A DNA stretch of 64,000 bases, taken from positions 6,176,001 through 6,240,000 of the forward strand of contig CBDDPY010000002.1 in assembly GCA_965232515.1 (NCBI GenBank), read 5' to 3'. A program made the position numbers and the translations under genes. Under the pieces are notes generated by a model. That model was given only the letters and a program-made list of their open reading frames with translations, made no database searches and was not told the DNA's origin. This DNA comes from Alphaproteobacteria bacterium. GTDB lineage: Bacteria > Pseudomonadota > Alphaproteobacteria > GCA-2731375. Shown one piece after another: positions 50 to 18,712 of the stretch; positions within the stretch are counted from its first letter, which is position 1, and the number at the start of each line of letters is the position of its first letter.

Positions 50-1555
50 GTGGCACTACGGCGGTTGTGGCGTGCCTTGGCGCTGGGCAAAGTGCAGCGG
101 CGTTCGCTGCCTACCTGCGCCCTGCTTGCTGCCACCGCATTTGCGACCGCTGCCGACGCGCAGGTGTATGTCGATCCCAGCGTTCTGAACGACTTGCAGA
201 GCCGGTTGGATGCGCAGGAGCGCATGCTGGAGCGGCAGCGCCTCGAGATGGAGCAGCAGCGACGCCAGCTGGAGCTGCTGCGCAGCCAGATCCTGCAACG
301 GCAACAACTCGATCAAATCCGTGGCGCCGGTCTGCCCCCCGCTCAGCCTTACGTTCAGCGGCCGATTCCGGCCGTGCCTGGCGCCGGGATTCAGACGACC
401 CAGGCCGCGCCGCGGCCCGTCGCGCCGGTGCCGGTAGCGCCGCAACCCGTGGCGCCGCAGCCGGTCGCCCCTCGACCCGCGGCGCCGCAGCCTGTCGCGC
501 CGCAGCCTGTCGCGCCGCAGCCTGTCGCCCCGCAGCCCGTCGCACCGCAGCCAGTCGCGCCGGAAACACCCCAGCCGGTCGAGACGCCACCGGTGGAGGC
601 GCCCGCGCCAGCGGCACCGACCGAGACCGCATCCACCGAGCGCGAGCCGGATCAGGGCGAGCAGTTATTGTTGGAGGCGGGCGGCATCCTGCTGCGGCCC
701 GGCCGGCTGCAGATCGAGCCGAGCCTGGAGTACTCGCATTTCTCCAGCGACCGCGTGGTGATCGCCGGCTTCACGATCTTCGAGGCCATCATCATCGGCA
801 CGATCCGGGTCGACGACCTGGAGCGCGATATCCTGACGGCCGGCCTGACGGCACGATACGGTCTGACCCGCCGCCTGCAGATCGAGGCGCGGGTTCCTTA
901 CACATATCGGCGCGACGACGAAATTCTCGGCGTCGGCACGGCCGACCAGGAAGACCGCCAGATCAGCGCCGACGGCATCGGCGATATCGAGGGCACGATC
1001 TCTTACCAGGCGCTGTTCCGGCGCGGTTGGATTCCAGACGCGATCGTCCGGGTGCGCGGCAAGGCCCGCAACGGGCGCGACCCATTCGACGTTGATCGCG
1101 AGACCACGACCGGCGGTACCGTGCGTCTGGACGAACCGCCGATCGGCAGCGGCTTCTTCGCGGTGTCGCCCGGCGCGACCTTTGTCTGGCGGACCGATCC
1201 GGTGGTGTTCTTCACTGGCGGCAGCTACACCTTCAACCTGGAGCGCGATTTCGGCGAGGAGTTCGGCGAGATCGATCCGGGCGACTCGATCCAGTATTTC
1301 GGCGGTATGAATATCGCGCTCAGTGATCGCGCCGCGATCAACTTCTCGTTCATCAACGAGTTCACGATGAAGACCAAGCAGGGCGACGTGAAGGTGCCCG
1401 GCACGGACACCAATGACGCCCGTGTCGTGCTGGGCGCGTCCGTGGGCCTGACGCAGAACATGTCGCTGCTGGTGTCGGCCGCGGCCGGGCTGACCGACGA
1501 GTCGCCCGACTTCCAGTTCACGGTCAGCGTGCCGATCAATTTCGATTTGTTCTAA
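50..1555 (+). CDS. fapF: FapF-like outer-membrane amyloid secretion channel
   Basis: Signal peptide (ATAADA-Q), Q/E/L/R-rich coiled coil, Pro-rich linker, then a beta-barrel with FapF-like segments (GGILLRPGRLQIEPSLEYSH, GIGDIE, PIGSGFF, GLTDESPDFQFTVSVPINF). Adjacent to a C39 peptidase and amyloid-repeat genes. Confidence 0.85.
   Translation: MALRRLWRALALGKVQRRSLPTCALLAATAFATAADAQVYVDPSVLNDLQSRLDAQERMLERQRLEMEQQRRQLELLRSQILQRQQLDQIRGAGLPPAQPYVQRPIPAVPGAGIQTTQAAPRPVAPVPVAPQPVAPQPVAPRPAAPQPVAPQPVAPQPVAPQPVAPQPVAPETPQPVETPPVEAPAPAAPTETASTEREPDQGEQLLLEAGGILLRPGRLQIEPSLEYSHFSSDRVVIAGFTIFEAIIIGTIRVDDLERDILTAGLTARYGLTRRLQIEARVPYTYRRDDEILGVGTADQEDRQISADGIGDIEGTISYQALFRRGWIPDAIVRVRGKARNGRDPFDVDRETTTGGTVRLDEPPIGSGFFAVSPGATFVWRTDPVVFFTGGSYTFNLERDFGEEFGEIDPGDSIQYFGGMNIALSDRAAINFSFINEFTMKTKQGDVKVPGTDTNDARVVLGASVGLTQNMSLLVSAAAGLTDESPDFQFTVSVPINFDLF
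407..556 (+). repeat. 15-bp coding tandem repeat, 10 x AP(Q/R/V)P(V/A), in the FapF linker
   Basis: Read directly: APRPV APVPV APQPV APQPV APRPA (APQPV)x5. Confidence 0.95.
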
Positions 1556-1579
1556 GGCGCGGCAGCCCAATCTTCTGAC

Positions 1580-1667
1580 CGTCATGCTGGCGTAGGCCAG
1601 CATCCACTGGCCGCGCAACACATTTGCGAGTCGACAAACTTGGATCCTGGCCTGCGCCAGGATGACG
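1580..1667. repeat. CGTC-tagged REP/RIME-like inverted doublet between convergent genes
   Basis: GTCATGCTGGCGTAGGCCAGCATCCA (1581-1606) and TGGATCCTGGCCTGCGCCAGGATGAC (1641-1666) are reverse complements at 23/26 positions. Each is itself an 8-bp hairpin. Confidence 0.75.
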
Positions 1668-1690
1668 AACGGGTCAGGCGTATCGGCGGT

Positions 1691-2698
1691 CTATTCGGTC
1701 TTGGCCGCGACCAAACCAGCTGACGCTTTTTCGGCGAAGCTGTTGTCGACGAAGCCGGCGAGCTTTGGCGCCTCGCGCAGAACCTGACCGATGGTCAGGC
1801 CCCAGCCGTTGTATTCGGCGTCGGCGATGTCGTTTTGGGTCCAGACGAAACGGTCGTAGCGGGTCATCTCGACCCATTCGCGCGCTTGTTCGTCGCGCAC
1901 GACCACGCCCTGGCGGTGGAAGAAGATGATCAGCAGCCGCGCCGCGTCGTCCGGATCCTCGTTGATGTAGTTCAGCGCGCGGACCCAGCCGTTGACGAAC
2001 CGCTGCACGGTAACCGGCGATTTTTCGATCATCTCATTGCGGGTGATCAACGCCTGCGCGCCGATGACGCCGAGGGTGCCGACGACCTGATCGGCGGTGA
2101 GCAGATGCCGGGCCTGACCGCCGTCGATCAGTACCTTGGTGAAGTGCTGCGATTCGAACACCGCGTCGGCGAGGTTGTTCTTGAAGGCGCTCGTCAGTTG
2201 GTCGGCGGTCAGCAGGCGGATCTGAACATCGCCGGGCTGCAGCCTGGCCTGATTGAGCAGGCGCATGAGCACCGGGAACGCTTCCGAACCGTTGCCGACG
2301 CCGACGGACTTGCCCTTCAGGTCGGCGACGCCGTTCAGATCCTGGTTGCTCTTCGGCACGACCAGCTCGGTCTTGGTGCCCCAGCCATTCAACGAAATCG
2401 CTTTGACCGGCAGGCTGGAGGCGGCGGCGACGAGAAACGTCCGTTGCGGCACGGCCGCGAAGTCGCTGGAGCCGACGCCTATGGAGCGCAAGGCCGCGGT
2501 GGCCGAGGTGATGGCCAGGCCGCTGACCAACAGGCCCTCCTCGCTGAACAGGCCGCGTTCGATGCCGACGATGGCCGGCAAGGCGTCCCAGCCGCTGCTG
2601 AACGACAGGCGTACCAGGGAAGACTCCTGCGCCGACGCCCGCACCGCGAACACGGCAATCAGCGCTGCGAGTACAACCGAAATCACTTGTCGTTTCAT
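1691..2698 (-). CDS. ABC-type substrate-binding protein, SsuA/NMT1/THI5-like
   Basis: Signal peptide, GLFSEEGL, ADLKGKSVGV, VQRFVNGWVRALNYINEDPDDAA. No permease or ATPase nearby. Confidence 0.8.
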   Translation of the reverse strand: MKRQVISVVLAALIAVFAVRASAQESSLVRLSFSSGWDALPAIVGIERGLFSEEGLLVSGLAITSATAALRSIGVGSSDFAAVPQRTFLVAAASSLPVKAISLNGWGTKTELVVPKSNQDLNGVADLKGKSVGVGNGSEAFPVLMRLLNQARLQPGDVQIRLLTADQLTSAFKNNLADAVFESQHFTKVLIDGGQARHLLTADQVVGTLGVIGAQALITRNEMIEKSPVTVQRFVNGWVRALNYINEDPDDAARLLIIFFHRQGVVVRDEQAREWVEMTRYDRFVWTQNDIADAEYNGWGLTIGQVLREAPKLAGFVDNSFAEKASAGLVAAKTE

Positions 2699-2743
2699 GG
2701 CCGACCGTCCTGACGCATTGTCGCTGCCGTTATTAGACGCCTC

Positions 2744-3559
2744 TTAGGGCGCCATGCTCAACACCGATTGCAGACCGGGGGCGGCGGCGAGGTCCTGCAC
2801 CACGTTGATCTGCACGAACAGATTGTTGTTCACGATGTTGAAGTCGCCGGGCACCTGGGTGATCTGGAAGATGCCGCTGGCGCCGTTCAGGTTGCCGACG
2901 ACGGTCTGGATGGTGACGTCGCCGTTGTTACCGACATTGACATCGGCCAGTGACGGCGCCGGCGCTGGCGGCCCGTTGACCACGAGGTTGCCGGTTGGAT
3001 TGCTGTTCGGCTGGATCGAGCCGCTGAAGATCACGCTGAAATCGAGGCCGTTGAAGGCACCGCGTTCGGTGGCCATCTCGCTCTCGTCCAACGCTGCCCA
3101 TTGCGGATTGAACACGGTCGCCGCGGCAAGGTGCCGGACGCCATCGATCGAACCCGCGGGCACACCATCGTCGGCGACGACCTCGACCAGGCTCGGCGGC
3201 AACGACATCACCCCCGACGTCGTGTCGTTTTTGGTCGATGTCGTACCATCGTCGGTCGGCGCGACCGGCGCGCGTTTGGCGAGCGTCGCCCAGTCGATCT
3301 TGGCGACGCTTGGCAGCTGCGCGACCTCGATCTCGACCTCGCCGCGCGACATCTCGACCTCTTTGGTCGTCACCGTCTGCGATTCCATATGGACGCGGAC
3401 GACGGGCACGAGCGCCGGCGCCAGCTCGGGCGGCGCCGAGGTCTGGGTTGTCGATGGTGGTGCGCAGGCGGCCAGCGTGAATAGCAGTGCGGCCGCCAAT
3501 GACCGCGGACGGGCGTTCGATCGCCGCCGCGGTTCAGTGTCTGGATTGGCGCATGGCAT
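2744..3559 (-). CDS. FapE-like protein with N-terminal lipoprotein signal
   Basis: Lipobox LAAC, internal LDESEMATERGAF motif, C-terminal GASGIFQITQVPGDFNIVNNNLFVQINV. Start overlaps the stop of the C39 gene (TGATG). Confidence 0.65.
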   Translation of the reverse strand: MPCANPDTEPRRRSNARPRSLAAALLFTLAACAPPSTTQTSAPPELAPALVPVVRVHMESQTVTTKEVEMSRGEVEIEVAQLPSVAKIDWATLAKRAPVAPTDDGTTSTKNDTTSGVMSLPPSLVEVVADDGVPAGSIDGVRHLAAATVFNPQWAALDESEMATERGAFNGLDFSVIFSGSIQPNSNPTGNLVVNGPPAPAPSLADVNVGNNGDVTIQTVVGNLNGASGIFQITQVPGDFNIVNNNLFVQINVVQDLAAAPGLQSVLSMAP

Positions 3560-4233
3560 CAGAATTCACCTGCCAGCGGCCGGATCGTCGCCAAGTTGCG
3601 ACTGAGCAGCATCATGATTTCTTCGGACGGCCCCTTCACGACCTGGCTGGTGCGGAAGGACTCGTCGCCTTGCCGTTGCTGATCCACGACCGCGAGGATG
3701 ATGTTTTTCCACTCGGATTCGAATTGGTCGAGCGGGCGGGACAGGTTGCCGAAGGCGGGATCTGCGATCAGAACCCGGCCATTTTCGACGCCCTTTACGA
3801 CAACGAAATGCGCATAGCCACGGGTGTTGATAAGGGTGATGACGGGCACTTTGAGCTGAAGCAGGTCGCGTACGTTGGCCAATTGAAAGCCGTCGGCCGC
3901 GTAACCGCGCGCTTCCGCCGCCTTTTTCATTTCGAGCATCGAGAAGCCGCGCTTCTGGATCTCCTCGACGTCGCCGGCCGCGACCATGTCGTCGATCAGT
4001 TCGCGTTCGGTGCGGGGGTCGCTGTAGAAGTAGGTGAACAGCGTCGCCATCGCCGCGGCGCCACAACTGACATCGAAACCCTGCCGCACCACATTCTTGA
4101 AGCGCAGACCGGCCATGCTCTCGACCGGCACATTGAGCACGGTGTTGCCCGGAATGGCAAAGGTTTGCGCGGCCGCCGGCGCTGACAGCGCGAATACGGC
4201 AAGCAGTACGGTTATGAGGCGCCGGGCGGTCAT
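3559..4233 (-). CDS. fapD: FapD-like C39 cysteine peptidase (exported)
   Basis: Signal peptide; VVRQGFDVSCGAAA (catalytic Cys), YAHFVVVKG (His), VLIADPAFGN (Asp). Confidence 0.9.
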   Translation of the reverse strand: MTARRLITVLLAVFALSAPAAAQTFAIPGNTVLNVPVESMAGLRFKNVVRQGFDVSCGAAAMATLFTYFYSDPRTERELIDDMVAAGDVEEIQKRGFSMLEMKKAAEARGYAADGFQLANVRDLLQLKVPVITLINTRGYAHFVVVKGVENGRVLIADPAFGNLSRPLDQFESEWKNIILAVVDQQRQGDESFRTSQVVKGPSEEIMMLLSRNLATIRPLAGEF

Positions 4234-5066
4234 TGCAGCGGCACCACATTGACCGACATCGCCAGCGCATTGCGCGCGATGTTGCCGTCGCCGGACGCCT
4301 GGCCGATCTGGGCGATGCCGCGGAAGTTGGTGAAGGAATCGGTGACGAAATCGCCGCGCGGCCGCTGCAGGCCATCCTCCTGGTAGATGGTCGTCAGATG
4401 GTTGTTCGCCACCTGCTCGTCGAGCGTGATCGCGTTCAGCGGCGACAGTGTCTGCGGGTTGTCGGCGATGCCGAGCGCCAGCGCGTTGGTTTGCTGGTTC
4501 AGGTTGCCGGCCGATTGATTGACGCCGACGATCCCGGTCGCGTTGTCGAAGCTGTTCATCACCGTATTGTCGCGGGCGACGTCGGTGACGGTAAGCCGGT
4601 TGTCGATCAGCCGGGTCTCGACAATGACCTCCTGCAGCTGCGTTTGATCGGCCGCCGTGCCGAGCGTGACGGCGCGCACATTGGCCTGATTGTTCAGGTT
4701 GCCGACTTCCTGATTGATGCTCATCATCCCGTGGGACTCGGAAAACGATTCGAAGATCGTGGTCCGACGCACCGGCTCCTCTGGCTCGCCGATGAACTTG
4801 ATGAAGGCCGGGTTGTCTTTAAACGTTTCGTAGTAGAGCGTGCCCGCGAGCGGATGCTCGACCTCGTCCTGCGTGATCGTGACGCGATTGCCGATCAGCG
4901 CCTGGTCGACCCTGGCGGTTGCCACCGCGGTGCTGCTGGAGAGCGCAGCGACACCGGCAATATCATTGACGCCAATGGACTGCGCACTTGCGGTAAGCGG
5001 CAGGATCGCCACGACGGCGACCGCGCCTGCCAGCGCAGCGTTGCGCCCTGGTCCTCTCCACGACAT
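4230..5066 (-). CDS. Fap-type amyloid subunit (FapB-like, probable minor subunit or nucleator)
   Basis: Signal peptide and three repeats, e.g. SFDNATGIVGVNQSAGNLNQQTNALAL, matching the FapB/C pattern S-x5-G-x3-VN-x3-G-x2-NQ-x-N. Confidence 0.8.
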   Translation of the reverse strand: MSWRGPGRNAALAGAVAVVAILPLTASAQSIGVNDIAGVAALSSSTAVATARVDQALIGNRVTITQDEVEHPLAGTLYYETFKDNPAFIKFIGEPEEPVRRTTIFESFSESHGMMSINQEVGNLNNQANVRAVTLGTAADQTQLQEVIVETRLIDNRLTVTDVARDNTVMNSFDNATGIVGVNQSAGNLNQQTNALALGIADNPQTLSPLNAITLDEQVANNHLTTIYQEDGLQRPRGDFVTDSFTNFRGIAQIGQASGDGNIARNALAMSVNVVPLQ

Positions 5067-5114
5067 TGCCCGTCACCAAAACCTGCTTATCCAAACGACT
5101 AAATGTCCCAAACG

Positions 5115-5150
5115 AATAAAAAGAGCGGGGAGGGGGCGAGCCCCCTCCCG
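5115..5150 (-). terminator. Intrinsic terminator/attenuator inside the amyloid operon
   Basis: 9-bp stem GGGAGGGGG/CCCCCTCCC with a 4-nt loop, followed on the minus strand by CUCUUUUUAUU, just after the 5164 stop. Confidence 0.75.
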
Positions 5151-5163
5151 AGCAAATAGCGGA

Positions 5164-6042
5164 TCAGATATTCGGTGCGCCGATCGTGACCTGCGACGTA
5201 AGCGCCGAGAAGGAAACGACCGAGGCCTGGTTGATGTAGTTGCCGGTGGTCTGGTTGACCGCCGTGATGCCGTTGTTGCCGGTGATCGATGCCGAGATGG
5301 TGTTCGACCGGGCGAAGTTCTCCTCGAACAACGTGTTGTTCTCGTTCTCCTGGCCCAAAGCCGACTCGGACAACGCGGCCGTGCCGTTGATGCCGACCGA
5401 CAGTGACACGGCATTGTGCTGGTTCACCGCATCGCCGGTATTCTGGTTCACGCCGACGATACCGCTGTTGCCGATCACCGAATTGGTCATGCTGTTGACA
5501 CGGGTTTCGTCGAACTTGACGACGACGATCGGCGGCTTGCCGGGTTCGTCGACCGTCTCGGTGCCGGTGTCGTTTTCGACCTGGACGAGGGTGTTGTCGT
5601 CGTTGTCCTGCTCGACCCACGCCTGCGCGTCGGCCGCCGACGATAGGCCGGTGGTCAGCGCGAAGGCCACGACGTTCCCCTGGTTGGCGAAGTTGCCGGC
5701 GTCCTGGTTCACGTGCGTGATGCCGGTATTGGCGTTGATCGAATCGACGATAACGGCGTCGAAATCGAGACCGAGTTCCTCCGAGCCATTGGTGTCATTG
5801 GTGACGAGCTCGTTCTCGGCGTTGACCACGGCCTCGGCTTCGGCCGCGCCTTCCGGCATGATCATCGACTCGACCTGAATGAACAACGCCTTGTCCTTCA
5901 GGATGTCCTCGTCGATGTTGATTTCCTTGTCCTTGTCGAGGAAGGCCTCGACATCGACATCAGCCATGGCCGACCAGGACGTTGTGCCAAGCAGCAGCGC
6001 CGTCGTCAGCCCCAGGCTTGCGTGTAAGAGCTTTCTCATCAC
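5164..6042 (-). CDS. Fap-type amyloid subunit (FapC-like)
   Basis: Signal peptide and three repeats: SINANTGITHVNQDAGNFANQGNVV, SVIGNSGIVGVNQNTGDAVNQHNAV, SITGNNGITAVNQTTGNYINQASVV. Confidence 0.85.
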   Translation of the reverse strand: MMRKLLHASLGLTTALLLGTTSWSAMADVDVEAFLDKDKEINIDEDILKDKALFIQVESMIMPEGAAEAEAVVNAENELVTNDTNGSEELGLDFDAVIVDSINANTGITHVNQDAGNFANQGNVVAFALTTGLSSAADAQAWVEQDNDDNTLVQVENDTGTETVDEPGKPPIVVVKFDETRVNSMTNSVIGNSGIVGVNQNTGDAVNQHNAVSLSVGINGTAALSESALGQENENNTLFEENFARSNTISASITGNNGITAVNQTTGNYINQASVVSFSALTSQVTIGAPNI

Positions 6043-6083
6043 TTAGGCTCCCTTCCGTATTCGCTAGGTTGCCGCGACCGGGC

Positions 6084-6875
6084 TTACTGGATCACCGCCG
6101 ACCCGAAGGCCACGATGTTGCCCTGGTTCGAGTAGTTGCCAACCGACTGGTTGACGCCCGTGATGCCGCTGTTGTTGGTCACGGACGTGGTGAGCGTCGC
6201 CAACCGGAAAGCGTTCTGCTCGGTCAGAACCAGCTCGAGATTCAGCTGACCGAGATCGGCTTCCGTCAGGATCGTGCCCGCGCCACCGGCGCCCGTCGTC
6301 ACGGCCATCGAGACGGCGTTTGCCTGGTTGCTGAACACGCCGACGGCCTGGTTGACATGCGTGATGCCGCTGCCGCCTTGCACCGAACCGGTGATCAGGG
6401 CTTCACGCTCCGTGCCGTCAACCGAGTTGAACGGGACGTCGCTGTTGATCTGCTGGGCATTGGCCTGCGCCTCGCCGAAGCTCGGATCGGCGCCCGTCGC
6501 CACGGCCGCGCTGACGGCGTTGCCCTGGTTCAGGAAGTTACCGGAGGCCTGGTTCACGCTCAGCACGCCGGTGTTGGTGTTCGCCGAGTTTTCGATCGTG
6601 TCGGTGCGGAAGGTCTCGACTTCTTCCAGCTCGTTGTTGTCGTTCTTCTGGTAGACCTGCAGATCCGACTCCGCGAACTTCTCGACCATGGCCATCACCT
6701 GCACCTGCAGGAATACGGCCTTGTCCTTCAGGATATCCTCTTGGATGTCCTTGTCCTTGAACTTGAAGATCTCGGCGTCGACGTCGACCTCGCCCGAGCT
6801 CTCCTCTTCTTGCGCCAGCGCCGGACTCGTCATGAGGAGCAGCGCTGCTGCAGTGCTCAAAAGCACGTTTCTCAT
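6084..6875 (-). CDS. Fap-type amyloid subunit (FapC-like), first gene of the operon
   Basis: ATG at 6875 with SD AGGAGG, signal peptide MRNVLLSTAAALLLMTSPALA, and three repeats: SANTNTGVLSVNQASGNFLNQGNAV, SVQGGSGITHVNQAVGVFSNQANAV, SVTNNSGITGVNQSVGNYSNQGNIV. Confidence 0.85.
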   Translation of the reverse strand: MRNVLLSTAAALLLMTSPALAQEEESSGEVDVDAEIFKFKDKDIQEDILKDKAVFLQVQVMAMVEKFAESDLQVYQKNDNNELEEVETFRTDTIENSANTNTGVLSVNQASGNFLNQGNAVSAAVATGADPSFGEAQANAQQINSDVPFNSVDGTEREALITGSVQGGSGITHVNQAVGVFSNQANAVSMAVTTGAGGAGTILTEADLGQLNLELVLTEQNAFRLATLTTSVTNNSGITGVNQSVGNYSNQGNIVAFGSAVIQ

Positions 6876-7021
6876 GCTTTTTCCTCCTGTTAAATACCGC
6901 TGGTTACCGGCGTTGGCAGTCACTAGGGTGGAAGCCATTCATGAAGCCCACGGGAACCAGCCCGACGGCCCGCCGACGACGGGCCCCGATGAAAGCAGAT
7001 CATTCGGAAGGGAGCGGCGCG

Positions 7022-7155
7022 TCTCCCAAATGGGGTAGCGGCGGCCATTTTTTTTGACACCGATACCCGTGCATGTCGGCTGACTGATGTCGGGGAACGT
7101 CGACAGCATTTTCGTCATCTGAACTTTGTCACCGCATGACCCTCATTTGGGGGTC
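7022..7155. promoter_or_regulatory. Two candidate LuxR-HTH operator palindromes upstream of the amyloid operon
   Basis: TCTCCCAAATGGGGTA (7022-7037) and GACCCTCATTTGGGGGTC (7138-7155). The same core recurs at 9972-9988. Confidence 0.5.
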
Positions 7156-7416
7156 GCGGCCCGACGGACCTTTGTCTAGCGTGCGGCAACGACAGCGTGA
7201 CGATTGCCGGATTTTGCATCTCTCGACCGCACGGCAATCAGGTGTGCCGGGATTGGCCCCGCGCGCAGAAGGACCTCGCCAGTAAAGGCGTATTGCTGTC
7301 CCAGCGCGCAAGGCCGTCGTGTGTCAGTGTTGATTTGGCCTGTACGGAATTGCGCGTGCGTTGGGGAAACGTGTGGCAGTCCCATGTTCGCGCGTCGATC
7401 TGATGGGATGGGGGGT

Positions 7417-7608
7417 GTGATACAGGCAAACGACAATGAAAAGTCAATTGGCCCATTGACGGCCAAGGAATGGCTCGAACTCGACCACTGGTCGTTTCAG
7501 GAATTGCCGCGGCATGCCTACGCGTTGTTCACGAAGCTGCTTGACGCGCACAAAGTTCCGATCGAACGCTGGCATAGTCAGGATGCGGCCGATGGCCCCG
7601 AGCGCTGA
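7417..7608 (+). CDS. 63-aa microprotein A (paralog of 11522..11713)
   Basis: GTG start inferred from collinearity with the paralog (an alternative ATG lies at 7408). 33/63 identical residues, ungapped. Confidence 0.75.
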   Translation: MIQANDNEKSIGPLTAKEWLELDHWSFQELPRHAYALFTKLLDAHKVPIERWHSQDAADGPER

Positions 7609-7662
7609 CGAAGGTCGATGGCAAATGCCGAAGCTCGTCCGGATACGACGGGTCGCCGCGCG

Positions 7663-8442
7663 CTAGTCTGTCGCCAGGCGCGCATGGAGCGCTTGCAGCA
7701 ACCGCGAAAGCTCGCTTTGACGCCCGGTACCGGTCTTGTCGAACATGTGCTTCAGATGCGTGCGCGCCGTTCCGGTGGTCACACCGAGTTTTTCGGCGGT
7801 GAGATCCAGCCTGTCGCCGCCGGCCAACAACGCCGCAATCTGGCTTTCCGCCGGCGTCAGACCAAAGAGCTCTTCGAGATCGTGGGGCGGCAACGATACC
7901 GGCCGTTCCGGATCGGCAACGAAGACCACGATCGGATCGTGATCGTCCAGGTGCGACGGGTCTTGTCGCTGCAGCCGATATGCGGCGAGTAGAAGCGGCT
8001 GCCGATGATCGTGGCGGTCGATTGCGAGCACGTTCGTTGCCGGATCATCGTCACCGCGCGATCCGTCGCGAACACAGGCGACCATCCGGGCGAGTTCGCC
8101 CGCCTGCGTCGAACTGTCCACGCTCAGTCGACCGGCCGTGATCGACAGCCCGTCATCCTGCGCCACGATCTCATTCACGTATCTGTTCGACCAGAAGACA
8201 TGTTCCTGACGGTCGAGCAGTGCGACGCCAATCGCCAGCCTGTCGAGTGCCGCCGTGACGGCGGTTGTGAATTCGTCTGACGCAGCTGCTGTGCGTGCAA
8301 GATCATCGAGACGGTCGGTCAGAAGCCGACGCTGAGCCGCATCGACCGGGAGGTCCGCGATTTCATCAATGAGCTGAGAGATCGCAACCTGCAGCCGGTG
8401 CGTCGATGCGACCGTATCCGCTCGCTGACGCCCCACGCTCAT
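7663..8442 (-). CDS. PAS-like/LuxR-HTH transcriptional regulator (paralog 1)
   Basis: ALDRLAIGVALLD...WSNR PAS-like segment; C-terminal FGLTPAESQIAALLAGG...GVTTGTARTHLKHMFDKTGTGRQSEL. Confidence 0.9.
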   Translation of the reverse strand: MSVGRQRADTVASTHRLQVAISQLIDEIADLPVDAAQRRLLTDRLDDLARTAAASDEFTTAVTAALDRLAIGVALLDRQEHVFWSNRYVNEIVAQDDGLSITAGRLSVDSSTQAGELARMVACVRDGSRGDDDPATNVLAIDRHDHRQPLLLAAYRLQRQDPSHLDDHDPIVVFVADPERPVSLPPHDLEELFGLTPAESQIAALLAGGDRLDLTAEKLGVTTGTARTHLKHMFDKTGTGRQSELSRLLQALHARLATD

Positions 8443-8644
8443 GAAATGCCCATCCCGGCATTTTGTTGTGGTTTGTTCTGCACGCGGCCCGAACCCCGAT
8501 GGCGCTTTATTGCTCCCAGACGCATTACTGAAGCAAACGAAGAGCCGACGTGATGTTCAGTACAGATGCAGCATTTACTACTTATATTAGTTTTAGTTCG
8601 AATATAATATTCGTCAGCCCTGAATATTCTCTACCTGTAGTATT

Positions 8645-8661
8645 AGCAAGCAGTGTGCCAA
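8645..8661 (-). promoter_or_regulatory. Sigma-54 (-24/-12) promoter for regulator paralog 1
   Basis: Minus strand reads TTGGCAC-ACTGC-TTGCT, an exact TGGCAC-N5-TTGC match. Confidence 0.8.
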
Positions 8662-8734
8662 ACGTGGTTAATTCCAATTTATCTTCCTGAACAACGCCTT
8701 AAGACCGGCCGTGTGCTGCCGTGGGGCAAGAAAG

Positions 8735-8771
8735 TGTAAAATCCTCCGACAATGCGTCGAGATTCTTTACA
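8735..8771. promoter_or_regulatory. Paired enhancer-binding-protein sites (PEP-CTERM-box-like)
   Basis: TGTAAAATCCTCCGACA (8735-8751) and an inverted copy reading TGTAAAGAATCTCGACG (8755-8771), 75 bp upstream of the sigma-54 site. The same motif pair occurs at 58870-58906. Confidence 0.65.
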
Positions 8772-8851
8772 GCTTAGCCAATCCATCCGAAGCAGGATTG
8801 TCCATACGAGGCGTCGTGCGCGTTTGGTTTCGGCGCGCGACCTCGCGTTGG

Positions 8852-9625
8852 TTAGCGGATCTTTCCGTGCAGAGAATGCAGAAGCCGGGCGAGTTCGCTT
8901 TGCCGGCCGGTGCCGGTCTTGTCGAAGATATGTTTGAGATGCGTGCGCGCGGTGCCTGTCGTCACGCCGAGCTTTTCGGCGGCGGAGTCCAGGCGGTCAC
9001 CGCCGGCCAGCCGGGCGGCTACCTGACTTTCGGCCGGCGTCAGGCCGAACAGCGTTTCGAGGTCTGCGGCCGGCAACGACATCGGTCGATCCGGATCGGC
9101 GACAAACACGGCCACGATATTGCGATGTCGTTGCGAGGTCGAATTCCCATGACGTAGTGGAAACGCCGCGACCAGGCATGGCCGCTCATGCCGCCGGCGG
9201 TCGATGGCCAGCACGGCGCCCGTCGTGTCGTCGGCGTCGCCTTGTCGATCGTGCGCCCGCTCTATCAGCCGGCTGAGTGCGTTCGCTTGCTCTGAGTTGT
9301 GCACCCGCAAGCGCCCGGCGGCGACGGTCAGTCCATCATCCTCTGCCAAGATGTCGTCCAGATACCGGTTCGACCAGATAACCGTCCCGGCGGCATCGAC
9401 AAGCGCGACGCCGACAGCGACCCGGTTCAATGTCCCAAGCGCGGCATCGGCGAGCGCTTGCGACTGCGCGACGGCTTTGCTGAGCGCATCGATCCGGGCG
9501 GTCAGCGCGTCGCGTCGTTGGGCGTCGATATCGAGGTTGGAAAGGTCGCGACGCATGCCCAACAAGACGTCGAGCAGCATACCCTGTCGGGTTGCAAGGT
9601 CTGTCCCCTCTCCCCTCATGTTCAT
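8852..9625 (-). CDS. PAS-like/LuxR-HTH transcriptional regulator (paralog 2)
   Basis: Close paralog of 7663..8442: WSNRY...DDGL...AGRL, VFVADP, FGLTPAESQVAARLAGG...TARTHLKHIFDKTGTGRQSEL. Confidence 0.9.
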   Translation of the reverse strand: MNMRGEGTDLATRQGMLLDVLLGMRRDLSNLDIDAQRRDALTARIDALSKAVAQSQALADAALGTLNRVAVGVALVDAAGTVIWSNRYLDDILAEDDGLTVAAGRLRVHNSEQANALSRLIERAHDRQGDADDTTGAVLAIDRRRHERPCLVAAFPLRHGNSTSQRHRNIVAVFVADPDRPMSLPAADLETLFGLTPAESQVAARLAGGDRLDSAAEKLGVTTGTARTHLKHIFDKTGTGRQSELARLLHSLHGKIR

Positions 9626-9971
9626 GAAGATCTGGACCTCGGCCCTCAGCTAGGGCTAGCGCAAAATCAAGCCCGTTCAGGTGATCCGAAGTCTGTCAGC
9701 TTGCCGTGACCGTTTTTGTGACTTCGATCACTCTTGGTCGCGCGTTACCAGAATGTCACAGCGCGACGATGTCGAAGATGGATGGGCAGAACACGCTCCT
9801 GATCGCTCGCCCTTCCATATGTGAACACAGTTACGTGTCAGTCTTGCGAAACCTGAAGCGTCGCGGCGGCGCGCGTCGATCGTTTTGACCGCGATCAGAG
9901 TTCGTTTCGTTTGCGATGCTGCGCCCCGCGAACCCACAGACGCCGCCGGATGTCCGGTTGCAGGTTTGGCT

Positions 9972-9988
9972 TGCCCCATTTGGGGGAC
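9972..9988. promoter_or_regulatory. Candidate LuxR-HTH operator upstream of the acyltransferase
   Basis: TGCCCCATTTGGGGGAC; same core as 7022-7037 (reverse complement) and 7138-7155. Confidence 0.45.
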
Positions 9989-10150
9989 GACTCCGCCAGT
10001 TGCACATGATCAGTTTGGATGCTCGGAAATCTGCCGGCTGGCGTCGAATGTCGGCTTGCCGGCGACAGGAGGCGTTGCCACGACCGGGGGAGGAACGGGG
10101 CACCGGATGCGCAACGGCATCAATACGAATAAGAACGACAGGAGGTTCAG

Positions 10151-11053
10151 ATGCCCGCTCGCGTGCCCCAATCCTGTAAAGCCGGTCGCCTGCCCATTCA
10201 GCACGACACGTCGCTTCTACAGGCGTTCGACAGGTTTTTCAGCGTCGTCACGGCCGACACGCCCGACCTGGTGCGGGAGGCGCACCGTTTGCGTCATCAG
10301 GTCTATTGCGTCGAAAACGATTTCGAGCCGCGCGATCGCAATCCGAACGGACTTGAGATCGACGCCTACGACGCCCGGTCGGCGCATAGCCTGCTGTATT
10401 TCGCACCGAGCCGACGGTTTATCGGAACCGTACGGCTGGTGCTGCCCGATGCCCGGCATCCGTATCGGAGCTTTCCGTTCCAGAGCATTTGCGGTGCGCG
10501 GCTTCGTGCCGTGCGCGACGCGGCGGAGGTTTCGCGGTTTTGCATTTCGCGCGAACTGCGACGGCCGCCGATGACGACAGGGATGCGGATCGCCGCGCTG
10601 TCCGGCGCTGGCGGCGCCCCGGCGACCGTCGACGCGGTCGACGAGGGTCGCCGGATCCTGCCTTATGCGGCCATGGGTCTGGTGCGCGGCCTTGTCGAGA
10701 CGAGTATGGCCAATGGGGTCAAGCACTGGTTGGTTTTGGCGGCGCCGACACTGTTGCGATTCCTCGCCGGCTTCGGCATTCACCTTGATCCCGTCGCGCC
10801 CATGGTCGACTTCCATGGCCCGCGCGTGCCCTGTTGTTCGAACCTGCAGCAATTGCTGGAGCTGGCACGGCAAGAACGGCCGGAGATTTGGCGCATACTG
10901 ACCGATGACGGCAGATTGGAGGTTCGCGGCGGTTCGTTCGCGTCGCCGATCAAGTCCAGGCATCGACCGGGGCGCGCGGAGCCGCGGCGCGGGGGCCGAT
11001 GGTGGCCCAGAGAGCGGCCGCCGTCCGTCCGACCTCACAGTCACTACACGTAA
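10151..11053 (+). CDS. PEP-CTERM/exosortase-associated acyltransferase (N-acyl amino acid synthase/LuxI-related GNAT)
   Basis: SD GGAGG; HRLRHQVYCVE, EIDAYDARSAHSLL, IGTVRLV, AEVSRFCISRELRR, VDFHGPRVP. Confidence 0.8.
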   Translation: MPARVPQSCKAGRLPIQHDTSLLQAFDRFFSVVTADTPDLVREAHRLRHQVYCVENDFEPRDRNPNGLEIDAYDARSAHSLLYFAPSRRFIGTVRLVLPDARHPYRSFPFQSICGARLRAVRDAAEVSRFCISRELRRPPMTTGMRIAALSGAGGAPATVDAVDEGRRILPYAAMGLVRGLVETSMANGVKHWLVLAAPTLLRFLAGFGIHLDPVAPMVDFHGPRVPCCSNLQQLLELARQERPEIWRILTDDGRLEVRGGSFASPIKSRHRPGRAEPRRGGRWWPRERPPSVRPHSHYT

Positions 11054-11419
11054 ATGTCACGTCGGACGCCTTGATCTGACACTGGCGAGCGCTCACTTCT
11101 GGGTCGCACGAATGCTCATTATCCCCTAATATTCCCGCGGTTCAGGCGATCTGAATTGGGGGTCGGAAAAGTTGGGGGATGGGCATCGCCCACGATGCCG
11201 AAGCCGTGCTCGGCGATGCTCGCGGATCGTGGTTAGCAACGCTGCGGAATCGCGATCGCCTGTGTGGCCGGTACCAACACGAACGACTCAAAAAGACGAT
11301 TACGGGACGGCGGCGGCGTCTCGACGAGGGCTGCCCGGCAATCCAGTACGCAGGACTTGTGGGCATCGGCGCGTTGAACCTAGGTACTTTTCCGGGCTCA
11401 CGCGTCTTGCGGAGGAATG

Positions 11420-11435
11420 TTAAGGATTTGTTAAC
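11420..11435 (+). promoter_or_regulatory. CtrA-type box
   Basis: TTAA-GGATTTG-TTAAC, an exact TTAA-N7-TTAAC match, about 87 bp upstream of microprotein B. Confidence 0.6.
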
Positions 11436-11521
11436 ACTTTCGGGAATACAGAGTTGGGATGCGCGAAACTGCCGATACTGCTTTCCTGTCGGACAGCCGT
11501 GTCATTGATCGGGACACGGAC

Positions 11522-11713
11522 GTGAGCTCGGACAACGATAAGAAGCAGAAATTCGGGCCGCTCACCGGCGAGGAATGGCTGGAGTTGGACACCTGGGCAT
11601 TCCAGGAACTGCCGCGCCACGCCTACGATATGTTCAGGAAAGTCGTCGAGAGCCACAACGTGCCGATCGATCATTGGCACGACGACAAGAAGCCGGACGC
11701 GCCGGACGGCTGA
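11522..11713 (+). CDS. 63-aa microprotein B (paralog of 7417..7608)
   Basis: GTG start; GPLTGEEWLELDTWAFQELPRHAY core shared with paralog A. Stop lies 5 bp from the stop of regulator paralog 3. Confidence 0.75.
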   Translation: MSSDNDKKQKFGPLTGEEWLELDTWAFQELPRHAYDMFRKVVESHNVPIDHWHDDKKPDAPDG

Positions 11714-11718
11714 TCCCG

Positions 11719-12507
11719 TCAGGACCTGTCGTCGGATTCCGACCGGTTCCAAAGAAGTTTGCCGAGCAACGCGCGGAGCAGGCGACTCAGCTCCCCCTGT
11801 CGGCCGGTACTGGTTTTCTGAAAGATATGCTTGAGATGGGTGCGCGCGGTTCCCGTGGCGACGCCCAATTCCGCAGCCGCGAGATCGAGGCGTTTGCCGG
11901 CGGCAAGGCGTGCGGCGAGCTCGCTTTCGGAATGCGTCAAATCGAACAACGAGGCGATGTGGCCGGCGTCGAGACGCTCGTCGCGTTGCGGGTCGGTGAC
12001 GAACACGGCGACATAATGCGCTGCGGCCGGCGCCGGCTGGTCCAGCGATCGCACGGCGGCATGATAAGAGCGCCTTCCCGATGGTCGCGCCAGCGTAATC
12101 ACGCCGGTCGCCATCTCTCCGTCACCGCAGCGATCGCCGATTTCCCTGATTCGTCGGTGCAGATCCAATGACTGCTTGCGGGTCGACGCACGCAGTTCGC
12201 CGCCGATAATTGACAGGCCGTCAGCCTCAGTCAGTATCTCGCTGCAATAGCGGTTGGCCCAGACGACATGGCAGCCCGGATCGACAACGGCGACGCCGAT
12301 CGACAGCTGATCGAGCGCGGCGAAGCCGGCGAGCGCGAGGTCTTCCGTCGGATTGTCGCCGCGTGCGAATTCAGATTGGCCGGGCGTGGCGGCATGATCG
12401 GTATCCGCATATGACAGCCTGGCCGAACCGCGGTCAGGCGGCCGCCGAGAGCGTGCTAAGCGACCAGAGTTCTCCGTAACGTCCGCCGCGCTATTCTTCT
12501 TGCTCAT
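11719..12507 (-). CDS. PAS-like/LuxR-HTH transcriptional regulator (paralog 3)
   Basis: ALDQLSIGVAVVD...WANR; FDLTHSESELAARLAAG...GVATGTARTHLKHIFQKTSTGRQGEL. ATG at 12507 with a GAGG SD. Confidence 0.88.
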   Translation of the reverse strand: MSKKNSAADVTENSGRLARSRRPPDRGSARLSYADTDHAATPGQSEFARGDNPTEDLALAGFAALDQLSIGVAVVDPGCHVVWANRYCSEILTEADGLSIIGGELRASTRKQSLDLHRRIREIGDRCGDGEMATGVITLARPSGRRSYHAAVRSLDQPAPAAAHYVAVFVTDPQRDERLDAGHIASLFDLTHSESELAARLAAGKRLDLAAAELGVATGTARTHLKHIFQKTSTGRQGELSRLLRALLGKLLWNRSESDDRS

Positions 12508-12844
12508 GGGTCCTCGGCCTCCCTGCCCCTGGAGACGGGCTCGAAACCCCAACAAGATCACCGAAGCGAGTTATGGCCGCTGTCGGTGTATCGGCTCTGA
12601 AAACATCAACGCACCGAGCTTGCACCAAGCGGCGGATTGGTGCGTCATTCGATCGGTGGGCCGTCTACGCGTCGCTGCCGATGCTAACCGGTCGCTCTCT
12701 TGCCCAACCGCGGCCGATCGAATGAAAACCGAAAGATCAATATAACGAGTTTCTTATCGACGGTCGACAACTTCGCCGGCCGCGCGTTTTGCCCCGTGCC
12801 GATGTCGTATTGAACAGTGTGCATGTTCGTCGGCGGATCTGGAA

Positions 12845-13564
12845 ATGGATGGCGACATGGGATCGGGTCGTTTCAAAACCATCGTCAACCTGGCGGCCAT
12901 ATTGGGGTTGCTGGCGGCCTGTTCGAAAGACGACGCGAATCCGGTAACGGCCGACGGCGCCGGCGACGAGATTAGCGTGATGGATTTCACCGAACCGTTC
13001 CCGCTCGACCCGCCGCCCGAAGGTTGGCGCCACCGGACCTTCTGGACCCGGCCGGCCATGGAAATCGGGTTCGCCGACAAGGACGGCGTCAAGGCGTTGC
13101 GCTGCGAGACGGATGGCAGCGGCTCGATCTTCGGCCGCAACACCGACGTCGCACTCGCGGACTATCCGCTGCTGGCCTGGCGCTGGCATGTGGAACTGCC
13201 GATCGACAGCGATCTCGATGAAGCGACCGAAGCCGGCGACGACCACCCGGCGCGCCTGTTCATTCGCATCGACGACGGGGCGGGCGAGGAACGCTACCTC
13301 GAGATTATTTGGAGCAACCGGAAGTACGCGCCTGGCGACTACAAGTATATCGGCGACTTTCCGCACTATGTGGCCAACGGACACGACGAAAACGCCGGCC
13401 GCTGGCATGACGAGCAGGTCGATCTGCTGGCGATCTATCGGACGATCACCAAGCGTGACGACGCGCCGCGGGTGAAGCTGATCGCCATTTTCTGCGACAG
13501 CGACGATACCGGCAGCCGCAGCATCGCCTATTTCGCCGACGTGCGCCTGCGGCGCGCGGATTAA
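12845..13564 (+). CDS. DUF3047-like lipoprotein
   Basis: Lipobox LAAC; YPLLAWRWHVE, GDDHPARLFI, IAIFCDSDDTG...AYFADV. Confidence 0.75.
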   Translation: MDGDMGSGRFKTIVNLAAILGLLAACSKDDANPVTADGAGDEISVMDFTEPFPLDPPPEGWRHRTFWTRPAMEIGFADKDGVKALRCETDGSGSIFGRNTDVALADYPLLAWRWHVELPIDSDLDEATEAGDDHPARLFIRIDDGAGEERYLEIIWSNRKYAPGDYKYIGDFPHYVANGHDENAGRWHDEQVDLLAIYRTITKRDDAPRVKLIAIFCDSDDTGSRSIAYFADVRLRRAD

Positions 13565-13634
13565 GGGAATGTTGAGGCTGGCCGGCTAGGCTTTCCGGCT
13601 CTTCCAGACGATCGACGAGAACGGGAAACGTCCG

Positions 13635-14093
13635 ATGGAACTTGCCGTCGCGCGCGGCCGGATCTCCGGCCCCGTCGCCATCCTTGCGCTGATCGGATTG
13701 CTGCTGACCGGGGCTGCTTACGCCGCCGGTTTCATCAACACGTTGGGCTACGAGAGCCGCCATGCAACGTTTTCCGGCTTCGCCAGCGGGACGCGTTCCG
13801 GAACCAGCGTCGGCCTGAAGCACATGCTGTTCTTCGAAGGGCAGACATTCTATGCGGCCTATGATGCCGAGGTGCGGCAGGGCTCGCTCCGGATCGGCAT
13901 TCTGGAGACCTTCGGGCCGATCGGCGACAAGCCGCATTTCGTCGAGAGCGTCACCGGCAACAGCCGTGGCGAGGTCGTCTACCGCATTCCCAAGACCAGC
14001 GTGTACTCGATTTATTTCGAGGGGTCTGTTCTGGGCGGTGACACGGGCCGTGGCTACGACGTCAGCTACACGGTGCGTTGGGGCGCGCGGTAG
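13635..14093 (+). CDS. Hypothetical membrane-anchored beta-rich protein (tandem paralog 1)
   Basis: N-terminal hydrophobic segment; shares NTLGYE, FFEGQTF, GRGEV/SRGEV, YF.GSVLG and DV.Y.VRWG.R with the next gene. Confidence 0.75.
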   Translation: MELAVARGRISGPVAILALIGLLLTGAAYAAGFINTLGYESRHATFSGFASGTRSGTSVGLKHMLFFEGQTFYAAYDAEVRQGSLRIGILETFGPIGDKPHFVESVTGNSRGEVVYRIPKTSVYSIYFEGSVLGGDTGRGYDVSYTVRWGAR

Positions 14094-14112
14094 CACGCCA
14101 GTCCGAACGCCG

Positions 14113-14574
14113 ATGCAGGAAGCGACGAGGCCACAACGGCGCAACGCGTCTATCGCGATGTTCGCCATCCCGCTTGTCTTGGTGCTGATGTGGACCGGCT
14201 ACGCGACGGGCTGGCTGAACACGCTGGGATATGAATACCGGCACGACAGGCTGAGCGGCTTCATGGGCGGCGGCGGCCAGGGCGGCAGCTTCGGCGTGAA
14301 CGATTTCTACTTCTTTGAAGGCCAGACATTCTTCGCGCAGTACGACGTCGAGGTGCGCCGGGGCGCGCTGGCGATCGGCATTTTCAAGCTGATCGACAAC
14401 CCGGACGACCGGATCCACTTTGTCCGTCACATAAAGGACAGCGGCCGCGGCGAGGTAACGTTCCGGATTCCCGAGACCGGTTTTTATACGATGTATTTCG
14501 ACGGATCGGTCCTGGGCCACAAATCGCGCCCGGGCATGGACGTCACCTACTCCGTGCGCTGGGGCGTGCGGTAG
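14113..14574 (+). CDS. Hypothetical membrane-anchored beta-rich protein (tandem paralog 2)
   Basis: ATG at 14113 in the 13852 ORF frame; collinear with 13635..14093. Confidence 0.75.
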   Translation: MQEATRPQRRNASIAMFAIPLVLVLMWTGYATGWLNTLGYEYRHDRLSGFMGGGGQGGSFGVNDFYFFEGQTFFAQYDVEVRRGALAIGIFKLIDNPDDRIHFVRHIKDSGRGEVTFRIPETGFYTMYFDGSVLGHKSRPGMDVTYSVRWGVR

Positions 14575-14586
14575 CGCGACGCCCGC

Positions 14587-15627: not shown

Positions 15628-15652
15628 CGCTGCGTCTCCTGTGGCCGGATTG

Positions 15653-16492: not shown

Positions 16493-16561
16493 GTCCTTCC
16501 TCCCGTCATATCTGCGGGCACATGTCGGCCCTGATGGCAGATAGTAGTACGGGTTATCCGG

Positions 16562-17896: not shown

Positions 17897-17940
17897 GCGG
17901 TCTGTCTCCCGCCGGGCCCGGCTATCCGCCGCCCGTGCCG

Positions 17941-18001
17941 TTAACATCTATCAGAAAGGTTCAGTTTTTGAACTTTAGATGTTAAGTTCAAAAAGTCAAC
18001 T
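17941..18001. promoter_or_regulatory. Tandem operator between the divergent MATE and HxlR genes
   Basis: AT-rich. Perfect 11-bp inverted repeat TTTTTGAACTT-N8-AAGTTCAAAAA (17965-17994) and two AAGTTCA-N5-TGAACTT-like units. Confidence 0.65.
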
Positions 18002-18173
18002 TTTTATGTTATTCTGTCGGTGAGTTATTCGTCGGTGTGGCGAAGGGTTTGCGCCACGATCACAGCGCGCGGTTGACGATGGATGTGCGAGCGGGTGTGG
18101 ATCGAAAAACGACAATAGATCGGCGCGCGGATGCCAATTGTCCGATCGGCGGTTGCGTTGGAGATCCAGCGCC

Positions 18174-18686: not shown

Positions 18687-18712
18687 CGGCCGGATCGCCG
18701 CCGCCGGCCCAT

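Follow-up and report, generated by a model that had tools for sequence, protein, structure and literature searches.

Does a fibre operon of the Fap type, found at one end of a 64,000-nucleotide stretch of an alphaproteobacterial genome, have its own control unit in the signalling genes that adjoin it? The stretch, hereafter the window, corresponds to positions 6176001-6240000 of contig C2 in the genome G000 (7.39 Mb, 65.5% G+C), the host of which is a Rhodospirillales relative with a class label that was taken from the nearest named records. The Fap-type genes lie at 50-6938 and the adjoining signalling island, which carries three PAS-LuxR regulators, two microproteins and an acyltransferase, at 7384-12561. 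In our reading, to which we assign a probability of roughly 0.55, this is a divergent Fap-type fibre-export locus that is controlled by a clade-private PAS-LuxR cassette via palindromic boxes. Taken separately, the assignment to a divergent Fap-type export/fibre locus is well supported and control of the operon by the regulators is probable, the latter on the basis of cis-elements and of synteny across two species. The private regulatory cassette, its candidate operator, the microprotein family and the solute-binding protein (SBP) within the operon are the features that are new here. The genuine reading frames in the window were picked out by their third-position G+C, and the scans of open reading frames (ORFs) and families recovered all eleven genes that the initial annotation had listed, each where it had been placed or nearby. 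The description of the locus as Fap-type and alphaproteobacterial also held, as judged from the homology to FapB, FapC, FapD and FapF and from the Alphaproteobacteria label of the nearest named records.

A divergent Fap-type operon

The operon runs on the minus strand from 6938 to 1691 in the order rep1, rep2, rep3, C39 peptidase, lipoprotein and SBP, and a FapF-like gene lies beyond its end:

50-1555, plus strand: FapF-like outer-membrane transporter, 501 amino acids (NF058560, E 4.1e-48)
1691-2698, minus strand: orphan periplasmic SBP of the SsuA/NMT1 family, final gene of the operon (PF09084, E 2.8e-21)
2744-3559, minus strand: lipoprotein at the FapE position, 271 amino acids, with the lipobox L-A-A-C and without a family match
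3559-4233, minus strand: FapD-like periplasmic C39 cysteine peptidase (PF03412, NF058616)
4230-5066, minus strand: rep3, FapB-like repeat protein (NF058557, E 1.6e-20)
5128-5149, minus strand: terminator-like hairpin with a T-run between rep2 and rep3 (consensus scan only)
5164-6042, minus strand: rep2, FapC-like, three repeats (NF058558, E 9.7e-10)
6084-6938, minus strand: rep1, FapC-like, three repeats, first gene of the operon (NF058558, E 3.8e-14)

The fapF that had been proposed earlier was found as a FapF-like gene; that it is encoded on the plus strand and converges on the operon had not been stated. The protein covers positions 93-420 of the NF058560 model (164 bits against a cut-off of 700), and its residues 197-497 align to the FapF barrel of the PDB entry 5O65 (13-333 of 334, E 9.9e-39). 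Its layout comprises a signal peptide, a coiled-coil-like region, a proline-rich (PAPQPV)n linker and a C-terminal barrel. In the linker, at about residues 115-175, P-(A/Q)-P-Q-P-V-A repeats join the coiled-coil-like N-terminus to the barrel; the FapF linker in Pseudomonas is much shorter and less repetitive than this one.

The C39 peptidase, the ORF of which overlaps rep3 by 4 bases, has a signal-peptide-like N-terminus, passes PF03412 (76.1 bits, cut-off 22, E 3e-21) and matches the FapD model NF058616 with E 2.2e-41 (141.6 bits against a cut-off of 330). The matches of rep1, rep2 and rep3 to the NCBIfam FapC and FapB models were all under the curated cut-offs. The repeat G-I-x-x-V-N-Q-x-x-G-N-x-x-N-Q-x-N is present in three, three and two strict copies in rep1, rep2 and rep3, respectively, and one further degenerate copy in rep3 was read by eye. 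All three proteins have signal-peptide-like N-termini, which in the case of rep1 is improved by the alternative start Met22 at 6875, and rep1 and rep2 are 41% identical. Rep3 is a candidate nucleator or minor subunit as far as can be judged from its sequence. The hairpin between rep2 and rep3 consists of 9 pairs, 8 of which are G-C, and is a possible attenuator that sets the subunit-to-accessory ratios. All of the Fap-model scores were below the NCBI equivalog cut-offs, and we therefore consider these proteins to be divergent homologues of the Pseudomonas proteins and not equivalogs.

The low scores also bear on another explanation, i.e., that the product of the repeat proteins is not amyloid but another fibre or an adhesin, a "pilus" of the Fil type, made by the same C39/FapF-type route. 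The distance of all of the Fap-model scores from the equivalog cut-offs is in line with it, as are the FilB score of the peptidase (E 7.4e-34), which is near its FapD score, the lack of a FapA and the unclear FapE. However, rep1-3 match the FapB and FapC models specifically and carry the imperfect, Asn/Gln-rich triple repeat by which these subunits are defined, with an N+Q content of 15-16% and zero cysteine, and we regard a non-amyloid product as quite unlikely.

The gene at 2744-3559 had been called FapE-like, a weak label for which its position in the operon and a 42-residue motif speak; no match to the FapE model NF058559 was obtained at E<=10. The 42-residue pairwise match, a short one, is to the genome's own FapE (E 0.002), and an hhalign profile comparison of the lipoprotein with FapE returned a probability of 15%. 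A single Fap-type G..G..Q..G..N motif is present in the C-terminal third of the lipoprotein, the C-terminal half of which is nearly invariant between the two species. The lipoprotein also contains E-M-A-T-E-R-G-A-F (residues 161-169) and the genome's own FapE (L014:12509-13417) contains E-L-A-D-M-R-G-R-F (residues 65-73); judging from the residues, both may represent a common cleavage motif of the double-glycine type. The lipoprotein copy is some 130 residues past the lipobox, and the sequence after it is nearly invariant across both species. The SBP matched TIGR01728 with E 4.3e-35, which is under the cut-off of that model, and it occupies the same position with 91% identity in the sister genome; no permease or ATPase gene was found beside it among the neighbouring ORFs that were scanned.

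The locus shares with the fapABCDEF system of Pseudomonas the FapF-type barrel, the periplasmic C39 peptidase, Asn/Gln-rich subunits that are exported by Sec and have three imperfect repeats, and a third subunit that resembles FapB. It differs in having two FapC-like genes, a lipoprotein instead of a clear FapE, an SBP of the SsuA type inside the operon, a convergent fapF and the private PAS-LuxR cassette, and in that FapA was not found: none of the 19 ORFs that were scanned matched it, the presence of a FapA model in NCBIfam not being confirmed. The frequent loss of fapA and a separate fapF are both described as Fap variations in the available text of PMC3792158. In that same text, a survey by Dueholm et al. 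from 2013, Fap systems are reported only for the Beta-, Gamma- and Deltaproteobacteria and none for the Alphaproteobacteria. We found Fap-type systems in 16 of 300 other sampled genomes of the class. Our literature search, which left subscription journals outside, returned nothing relevant on Fap in Alphaproteobacteria or on Fil/C39 systems in Acinetobacter.

A palindromic box in the fap promoter

A regulatory link is best supported by a rare palindrome, CCCCATTTGGGG, which on sequence grounds appears to connect the fap promoter with the PAS-LuxR genes. Three sites, for which no strand is assigned, are located in the operon-island region:

7024-7035: box 1, TCCCAAATGGGG, 86 bp before the rep1 ATG; at L008:775 in the sister genome, at the same distance
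7141-7152: box 2, CCTCATTTGGGG, 203 bp before the rep1 ATG, in the promoter region from which rep1 and micro1 diverge; at L008:662 in the sister genome
9974-9985: box 3, CCCCATTTGGGG, an exact copy, 166 bp before the acyltransferase start and 349 bp before the LuxR2 start

The 7.33-Mb chromosome contains 3 exact copies of the palindrome and 24 sites with at most one mismatch, compared to 6 for the reversed control; a rough gene call placed 14 of the 24 in intergenic regions. Two further boxes flank a receiver-PAS-LuxR gene at 3.2159/3.2171 Mb. About 0.014 sites would be expected in the approximately 4.4 kb of the island and paralogue regions, which were picked after the sites had been seen. 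Another exact box precedes, by 60 bp, a secreted gene of the animal-haem-peroxidase family (C2:3093749-3095461, E 2.5e-130) and is kept in the sister genome. The neighbour genes of the other nine intergenic boxes had no common theme, save for the haem peroxidase and the H-NOX cluster. A second peroxidase-family gene is present in the window at 23285-24742.

The sister genome, G001, belongs to the same genus and is 81% complete. One of its contigs carries micro1, rep1-3, FapD, the lipoprotein, the SBP and part of FapF, and a second one, which ends where the first begins, carries LuxR3, micro2, LuxR2 and LuxR1; the flanks have 83-91% nucleotide identity between the two genomes. Both fap-promoter boxes were kept with identical flanks and a spacing of 113 versus 117 bp, even though the intergenic identity around them was only about 78%. 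Box sites were found at five orthologous positions in G001: the two in the fap promoter, the two at the paralogue and the one before the haem-peroxidase gene. The initial annotation had proposed that the whole 12.7 kb is one system in which an acylated signal, LuxR-type regulators and small modulators control the amyloid matrix. Part of this was borne out, as the single available sister has the regulators and microproteins linked to its fap operon, but the acyltransferase is missing there.

PAS-LuxR regulators and microproteins

The island encodes the following regulators and microproteins:

7384-7608, plus strand: micro1, cytoplasmic protein of 74 amino acids, paralogue of micro2; divergent from rep1 and convergent with LuxR1
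7663-8442, minus strand: LuxR1, one-component regulator with PAS and a LuxR-type helix-turn-helix (HTH), 259 amino acids (GerE and PAS matches below the cut-off)
8852-9625, minus strand: LuxR2, PAS and LuxR-HTH, 257 amino acids (by paralogy, with GerE and PAS matches below the cut-off)
11459-11713, plus strand: micro2, 84 amino acids, paralogous to micro1, with 5 bp between its stop and that of LuxR3
11719-12561, minus strand: LuxR3, PAS and LuxR-HTH, 280 amino acids, with a disordered N-terminus (by fold model)

LuxR1-3 are paralogues with a mutual identity of 44-54% (54% for LuxR1 and LuxR2). Their scores against the Pfam GerE model were 18.1-21.8, with a cut-off of 23.5, and their PAS matches were weak too; the Pfam scan found no autoinducer-binding domain in LuxR1, LuxR2 or LuxR3. 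The G+C content falls to 0.52 at 8501-9000, in the intergenic region between LuxR1 and LuxR2. The recognition helix T-A-R-T/V-H/Y-L-K is common to the box-associated regulators, whereas three paralogues without adjacent boxes differ in it. The receiver-PAS-LuxR paralogue that is flanked by two boxes heads a cluster at C2:3211500-3217100, in which a haem-NO-binding (H-NOX) protein, a histidine kinase with a PAS domain and a receiver-HD(GYP-like) protein are also encoded. The cluster may be a nitric oxide (NO)-responsive signalling set, with an operator that is possibly common with the fap promoter.

The relatives of the regulators bear the JGI label "CsgD family", which is a COG label. CsgD is a LuxR-family regulator that is encoded divergently beside the curli amyloid operon of enterobacteria, and in both cases a LuxR-family regulator is thus found next to an amyloid-fibre operon. 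However, CsgD has a receiver-like N-terminal domain where the proteins described here have PAS, and the curli and Fap machineries are unrelated.

According to structure modelling, the regulators are composed of an N-terminal PAS fold and a C-terminal four-helix LuxR-type HTH. The AlphaFold model of LuxR3 was confident for about residues 70-270, with a predicted local distance difference test (pLDDT) of >90 for most of 90-260, and its best Foldseek matches were VqmA (7DWM, 6KJU, 6UGL, 6IDE) and EL222 (3P7N), with E 1e-6 to 5e-6. VqmA is the quorum-sensing receptor of Vibrio cholerae for 3,5-dimethylpyrazin-2-ol (DPO) and EL222 is a LOV-HTH protein. Both share the two-domain PAS plus LuxR-type HTH architecture with the LuxR3 model but are only 14-18% identical to it, with whole-chain TM scores of 0.25-0.39; three tandem paralogues and a partner microprotein family further distinguish the present locus from VqmA. 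The VqmA operator, AGGGGGGATTTCCCCCCT, is given in the available part of PMC8284805 as a G/C-run palindrome around ATTT. The box described here also has G/C runs around ATTT, but with the opposite half-site polarity, i.e., the C-run first.

The two microproteins are 44% identical by tblastn and 49% by alignment, and share the stretch G-P-L-T-x-x-E-W-L-E-L-D-x-W-x-F-Q-E-L-P-R-H-A-Y. They are under purifying selection, with dN/dS values of 0.11 for micro1 and 0.30 for micro2. No Pfam or NCBIfam family matched them, and the family was found to have very few members: 19 of 5.8 billion proteins, 13 clusters in a set of 1.84 billion representatives, and two of 61 genomes (60 relatives and G000), namely G000 and its congener G001. 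A scan of genome contigs with the microprotein alignment returned three loci, two of which (L011 and L012) match the content of the sister contigs; among metagenome contigs, the same alignment gave 37 pattern stretches, 0 of which were confirmed by tblastn. The third genome locus, L013:10001-10177, encodes a distant homologue with 52% identity in a metagenome-assembled genome labelled Rhodospirillaceae. It sits between an OmpR-type two-component system and an extracytoplasmic function (ECF) sigma factor with a periplasmic anti-sigma-like protein. Micro2 was modelled as a small helical bundle of low certainty (mean pLDDT 62.7), and the ESM Atlas held no usable match for it. The predicted complex of LuxR3 and micro2 (score 0.13, mark 0.32) weighs neither way on binding. 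The locus also offers a new orphan microprotein family that is linked to transcription regulators.

Distribution and the proposed regulatory link

We scanned 300 other genomes, sampled from the class, for FapF-like genes (E<=1e-10) and for the acyltransferase family TIGR03694 (E<=1e-20). The former were present in 16 genomes and the latter in 13; in the family, four of the 32 other genomes had a FapF-like gene, of which only that of G001 is orthologous. The 16 genomes of the class provided 18 FapF loci, 16 of which also contain FapD, encoded in nine of these 16 on the strand opposite to FapF. For TIGR03694, 12 loci were examined, which hold 15 of the 20 matches when tandem copies are pooled and the five matches below the cut-off are omitted; PAS-LuxR genes, microproteins and fap genes were found at none of them. 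The regulatory cassette is clade-private. A class-wide linkage of the regulators and the acyltransferase to fap genes, on which the initial annotation had made its proposal depend, is therefore largely lacking (1/18 and 0/18 of the FapF loci, 0/12 of the TIGR03694 loci), except inside a small clade.

Several observations weigh against control of the operon by the cassette. At 17 of the 18 FapF loci of the class there was no PAS-LuxR gene within 10 kb, and acyltransferase, microprotein and SBP genes were found at none of the 18; none of the 300 genomes had both a FapF-like gene and TIGR03694. The distant microprotein homologue at L013 has no PAS-LuxR, fap or acyltransferase neighbour. G000 itself carries three FapF-like genes, each in a Fap-type locus, and the other two loci have neither a box nor a PAS-LuxR neighbour. 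The third-position G+C of the island genes, 0.70-0.75, is lower than that of the fap genes, 0.78-0.87, and the island may therefore have a separate history. The box is a candidate operator that was found by a repeat search inside the island, and the regulon was defined afterwards. The repeat proteins are putative amyloid formers.

A further case comes from G189, a genome of another family, in which a fapB-C-D-E-F operon (L017) has a PAS-LuxR gene 3.2 kb away. The 15-mer TACCCCATTTGGGAG is identical at box 1 and 75 bp before this fapB, in the same orientation. Against this, G189 holds 102 box sites in 5.4 Mb; the pattern is common there and the case is therefore suggestive only.

It could be argued from these data that the island and the operon are neighbours and not partners, the island being autonomous with targets elsewhere, the fap genes being otherwise controlled and the adjacency arising from a variable region. 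The region is indeed rich in indels (9762-11028, 12787-15653 and 16509-18704 are missing in G001), and the difference in codon composition, the lack of class-wide linkage and the boxes at unrelated genes such as the haem peroxidase and the H-NOX cluster fit such an explanation. Yet the two boxes of the rep1 promoter retained identical flanks in G001 in poorly conserved surroundings, micro1 lies in the same promoter region and is still beside rep1 in G001, and the same 15-mer precedes fapB in G189. We consider mere adjacency unlikely, and control of the fap operon by the PAS-LuxR cassette remains our preferred reading.

The acyltransferase

Two features of the island concern a possible signal synthase:

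9762-11028, no strand assigned: 1.27-kb segment with box 3 and the acyltransferase, missing from the sister island
10151-11053, plus strand: TIGR03694 acyltransferase of the N-acyl amino acid synthase family, 300 amino acids (family cut-off passed)

The enzyme scored 221.9 bits against TIGR03694 (cut-off 111.95, model positions 2-240 of 241), with further matches to PF13444 (E 4.5e-14), FeeM (E 8.5e-9) and the TraI model (E 7.7e-8); against PF00765, it reached 20.4 bits with a cut-off of 24 (E 4e-4). In a blastn comparison of the sister contig with the window, 7674-9761 and 11029-12351 aligned and were about 25 bases apart in the sister. The acyltransferase cannot be upheld as a fixed part of the unit, as the initial annotation had it, because G001 lacks 9762-11028 and yet retains all three regulators and the fap boxes. 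The motifs A-T-G-T-C-A-C and G-T-G-A-C occur on both sides of the segment (9712-9760 and 11040-11075), and are about 60 bp apart in G001.

The nearest relatives of the enzyme are three metagenomic proteins of 300 amino acids with 71, 65 and 63% identity. The longest contigs of the 71% and 63% orthologues have 22,324 and 15,213 bases, and the same figures were obtained for the LuxR2-like and LuxR1-like proteins; the longest contig of a microprotein homologue also has 22,324 bases. From these matching figures we infer that the contigs are the same; the acyltransferase would then be an old member of the cassette that was lost by G001, a loss being the simpler reading. A recent insertion that had given the enzyme a read-through C-terminus was also considered and was overturned by the 300-amino-acid orthologues on the contigs of the LuxR homologues. 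In the Logan contigs of four runs, a 226-base contig with 3 differences spans the right edge of the acyltransferase segment, and those of another run match stretches of the gene with about 98% identity, which shows only that near-identical strains also carry the segment.

G000 has three TIGR03694 genes, the other two of which lie in tandem at 4.83 Mb beside a PepA-like PEP-CTERM protein; G001 has the tandem pair only. It has long been suspected that N-acyl amino acid synthases act in signalling in matrix/exosortase biology, and we know of no receptor for this family. The island copy has in common with the PEP-CTERM-associated family a score above the cut-off, while it differs from it in its setting among PAS-LuxR genes, in a conserved 45-residue C-terminal extension that is found in the 300-amino-acid orthologues, and in its neighbourhood, since no PEP-CTERM or exosortase gene was present among the ORFs scanned at 50-30819 of the window.

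This raises the possibility of a circuit resembling quorum sensing, in which the N-acyl amino acid that is made by the acyltransferase would be the ligand of the PAS-LuxR proteins, with feedback on the synthase and on fap, and with the microproteins tuning the receptors. The exact box upstream of the acyltransferase is consistent with it, and so are the contigs that the enzyme apparently shares with LuxR1/2-like proteins in two other lineages, the regulator architecture, which is that of the small-molecule receptor VqmA, and the distant relationship of the enzyme family to LuxI-type synthases that is indicated by the TraI and PF00765 matches. The arrangement would resemble the LuxI/LuxR system of N-acyl homoserine lactone (AHL) quorum sensing, with a synthase by LuxR-HTH regulators and an operator before the synthase gene; it differs in the PAS domain that takes the place of an autoinducer-binding domain and in a synthase that is under the PF00765 cut-off. 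On the other hand, G001 keeps the receptors, microproteins and boxes without the island enzyme, for which its tandem pair could substitute, and no PAS-LuxR neighbour was found at any of the 12 TIGR03694 loci of the class. The family is otherwise tied to PEP-CTERM/exosortase loci, as is stated in the available part of PMC7293339, citing Craig 2011, and as is seen for the tandem pair of G000. A regulated output would account equally well for the upstream box, and no report of such a synthase together with a PAS-LuxR receptor was found in the literature, subscription journals and supplements being outside the search. From the sequences, an acyl signal is possible but doubtful, and we keep to control of the operon by the cassette with the enzyme as an accessory.

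Proposed mechanism

Going by homology, Sec would export all six operon products, namely rep1-3, the C39 peptidase, the lipoprotein and the SBP, and the FapF-like barrel would carry the unfolded subunits over the outer membrane. The fibre would be built of rep1 and rep2, with rep3 nucleating or accompanying it, and the hairpin 3' of rep2 may hold the accessory genes at a lower dosage. The cis-elements and the synteny suggest that LuxR1-3 bind the palindrome and, via two boxes, drive the divergent rep1/micro1 promoter, while box 3 would bring the acyltransferase, and perhaps LuxR2 as well, into this regulon. The receiver-PAS-LuxR paralogue of the H-NOX/kinase cluster could deliver a second input to the same sites. 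The microproteins would be co-regulated cytoplasmic factors, and the acyltransferase an accessory member of the cassette that either makes a lipid ligand or is merely a regulated output.

In its most extended form, a cell-cell or self-signalling circuit that has not been described would lead from a FeeM/TIGR03694-type synthase through an N-acyl amino acid and PAS-LuxR receptors to the operator, and from there to Fap-type amyloid and the synthase itself, with proteins of about 75 residues as partners or anti-activators and an NO-sensing H-NOX phosphorelay converging via the receiver-PAS-LuxR paralogue. We regard this full chain as distinctly improbable. If the PAS-LuxR proteins were the receptor of the synthase product, a new signal/receptor pair would be defined. 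The importance of the locus lies in the combination of a Fap-type operon with a compact candidate control unit of three sensor-regulators, a candidate 12-bp operator with two copies in the promoter, and a candidate synthase of a lipid signal. We know of no dedicated transcription factor of a Fap operon, our literature search not having been aimed at Fap regulation.

Other Fap-type loci and variable segments

The second Fap locus of G000 (C2:7106900-7119700, 7.107-7.120 Mb) is more canonical, with FapB, FapC paralogues, FapD (265 bits), FapE (87 bits) and FapF (422 bits). It contains several FapC-like ORFs of about 280 amino acids; the three that were scanned all match FapC, and three more look alike. 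A protein with a peptidoglycan-binding domain is also encoded there, with a sigma-54-activator-like gene upstream and an XRE+LuxR-HTH gene downstream of the locus. The third locus (C2:2785600-2791000) is of the FapD/FapF type and Fil-like, scoring about as well against FilB/FilC. Its three small cargo proteins have bacteriocin-like leaders right behind the signal peptide (e.g., M-T-D-D-E-L-D-A-V-K-A-G).

Beyond the island, the two missing blocks leave an SDR gene directly following LuxR3 in G001. The block at 12787-15653 encodes DUF3047, an ORF of 152 amino acids and an O-methyltransferase, and that at 16509-18704 a MATE pump and an HxlR regulator.

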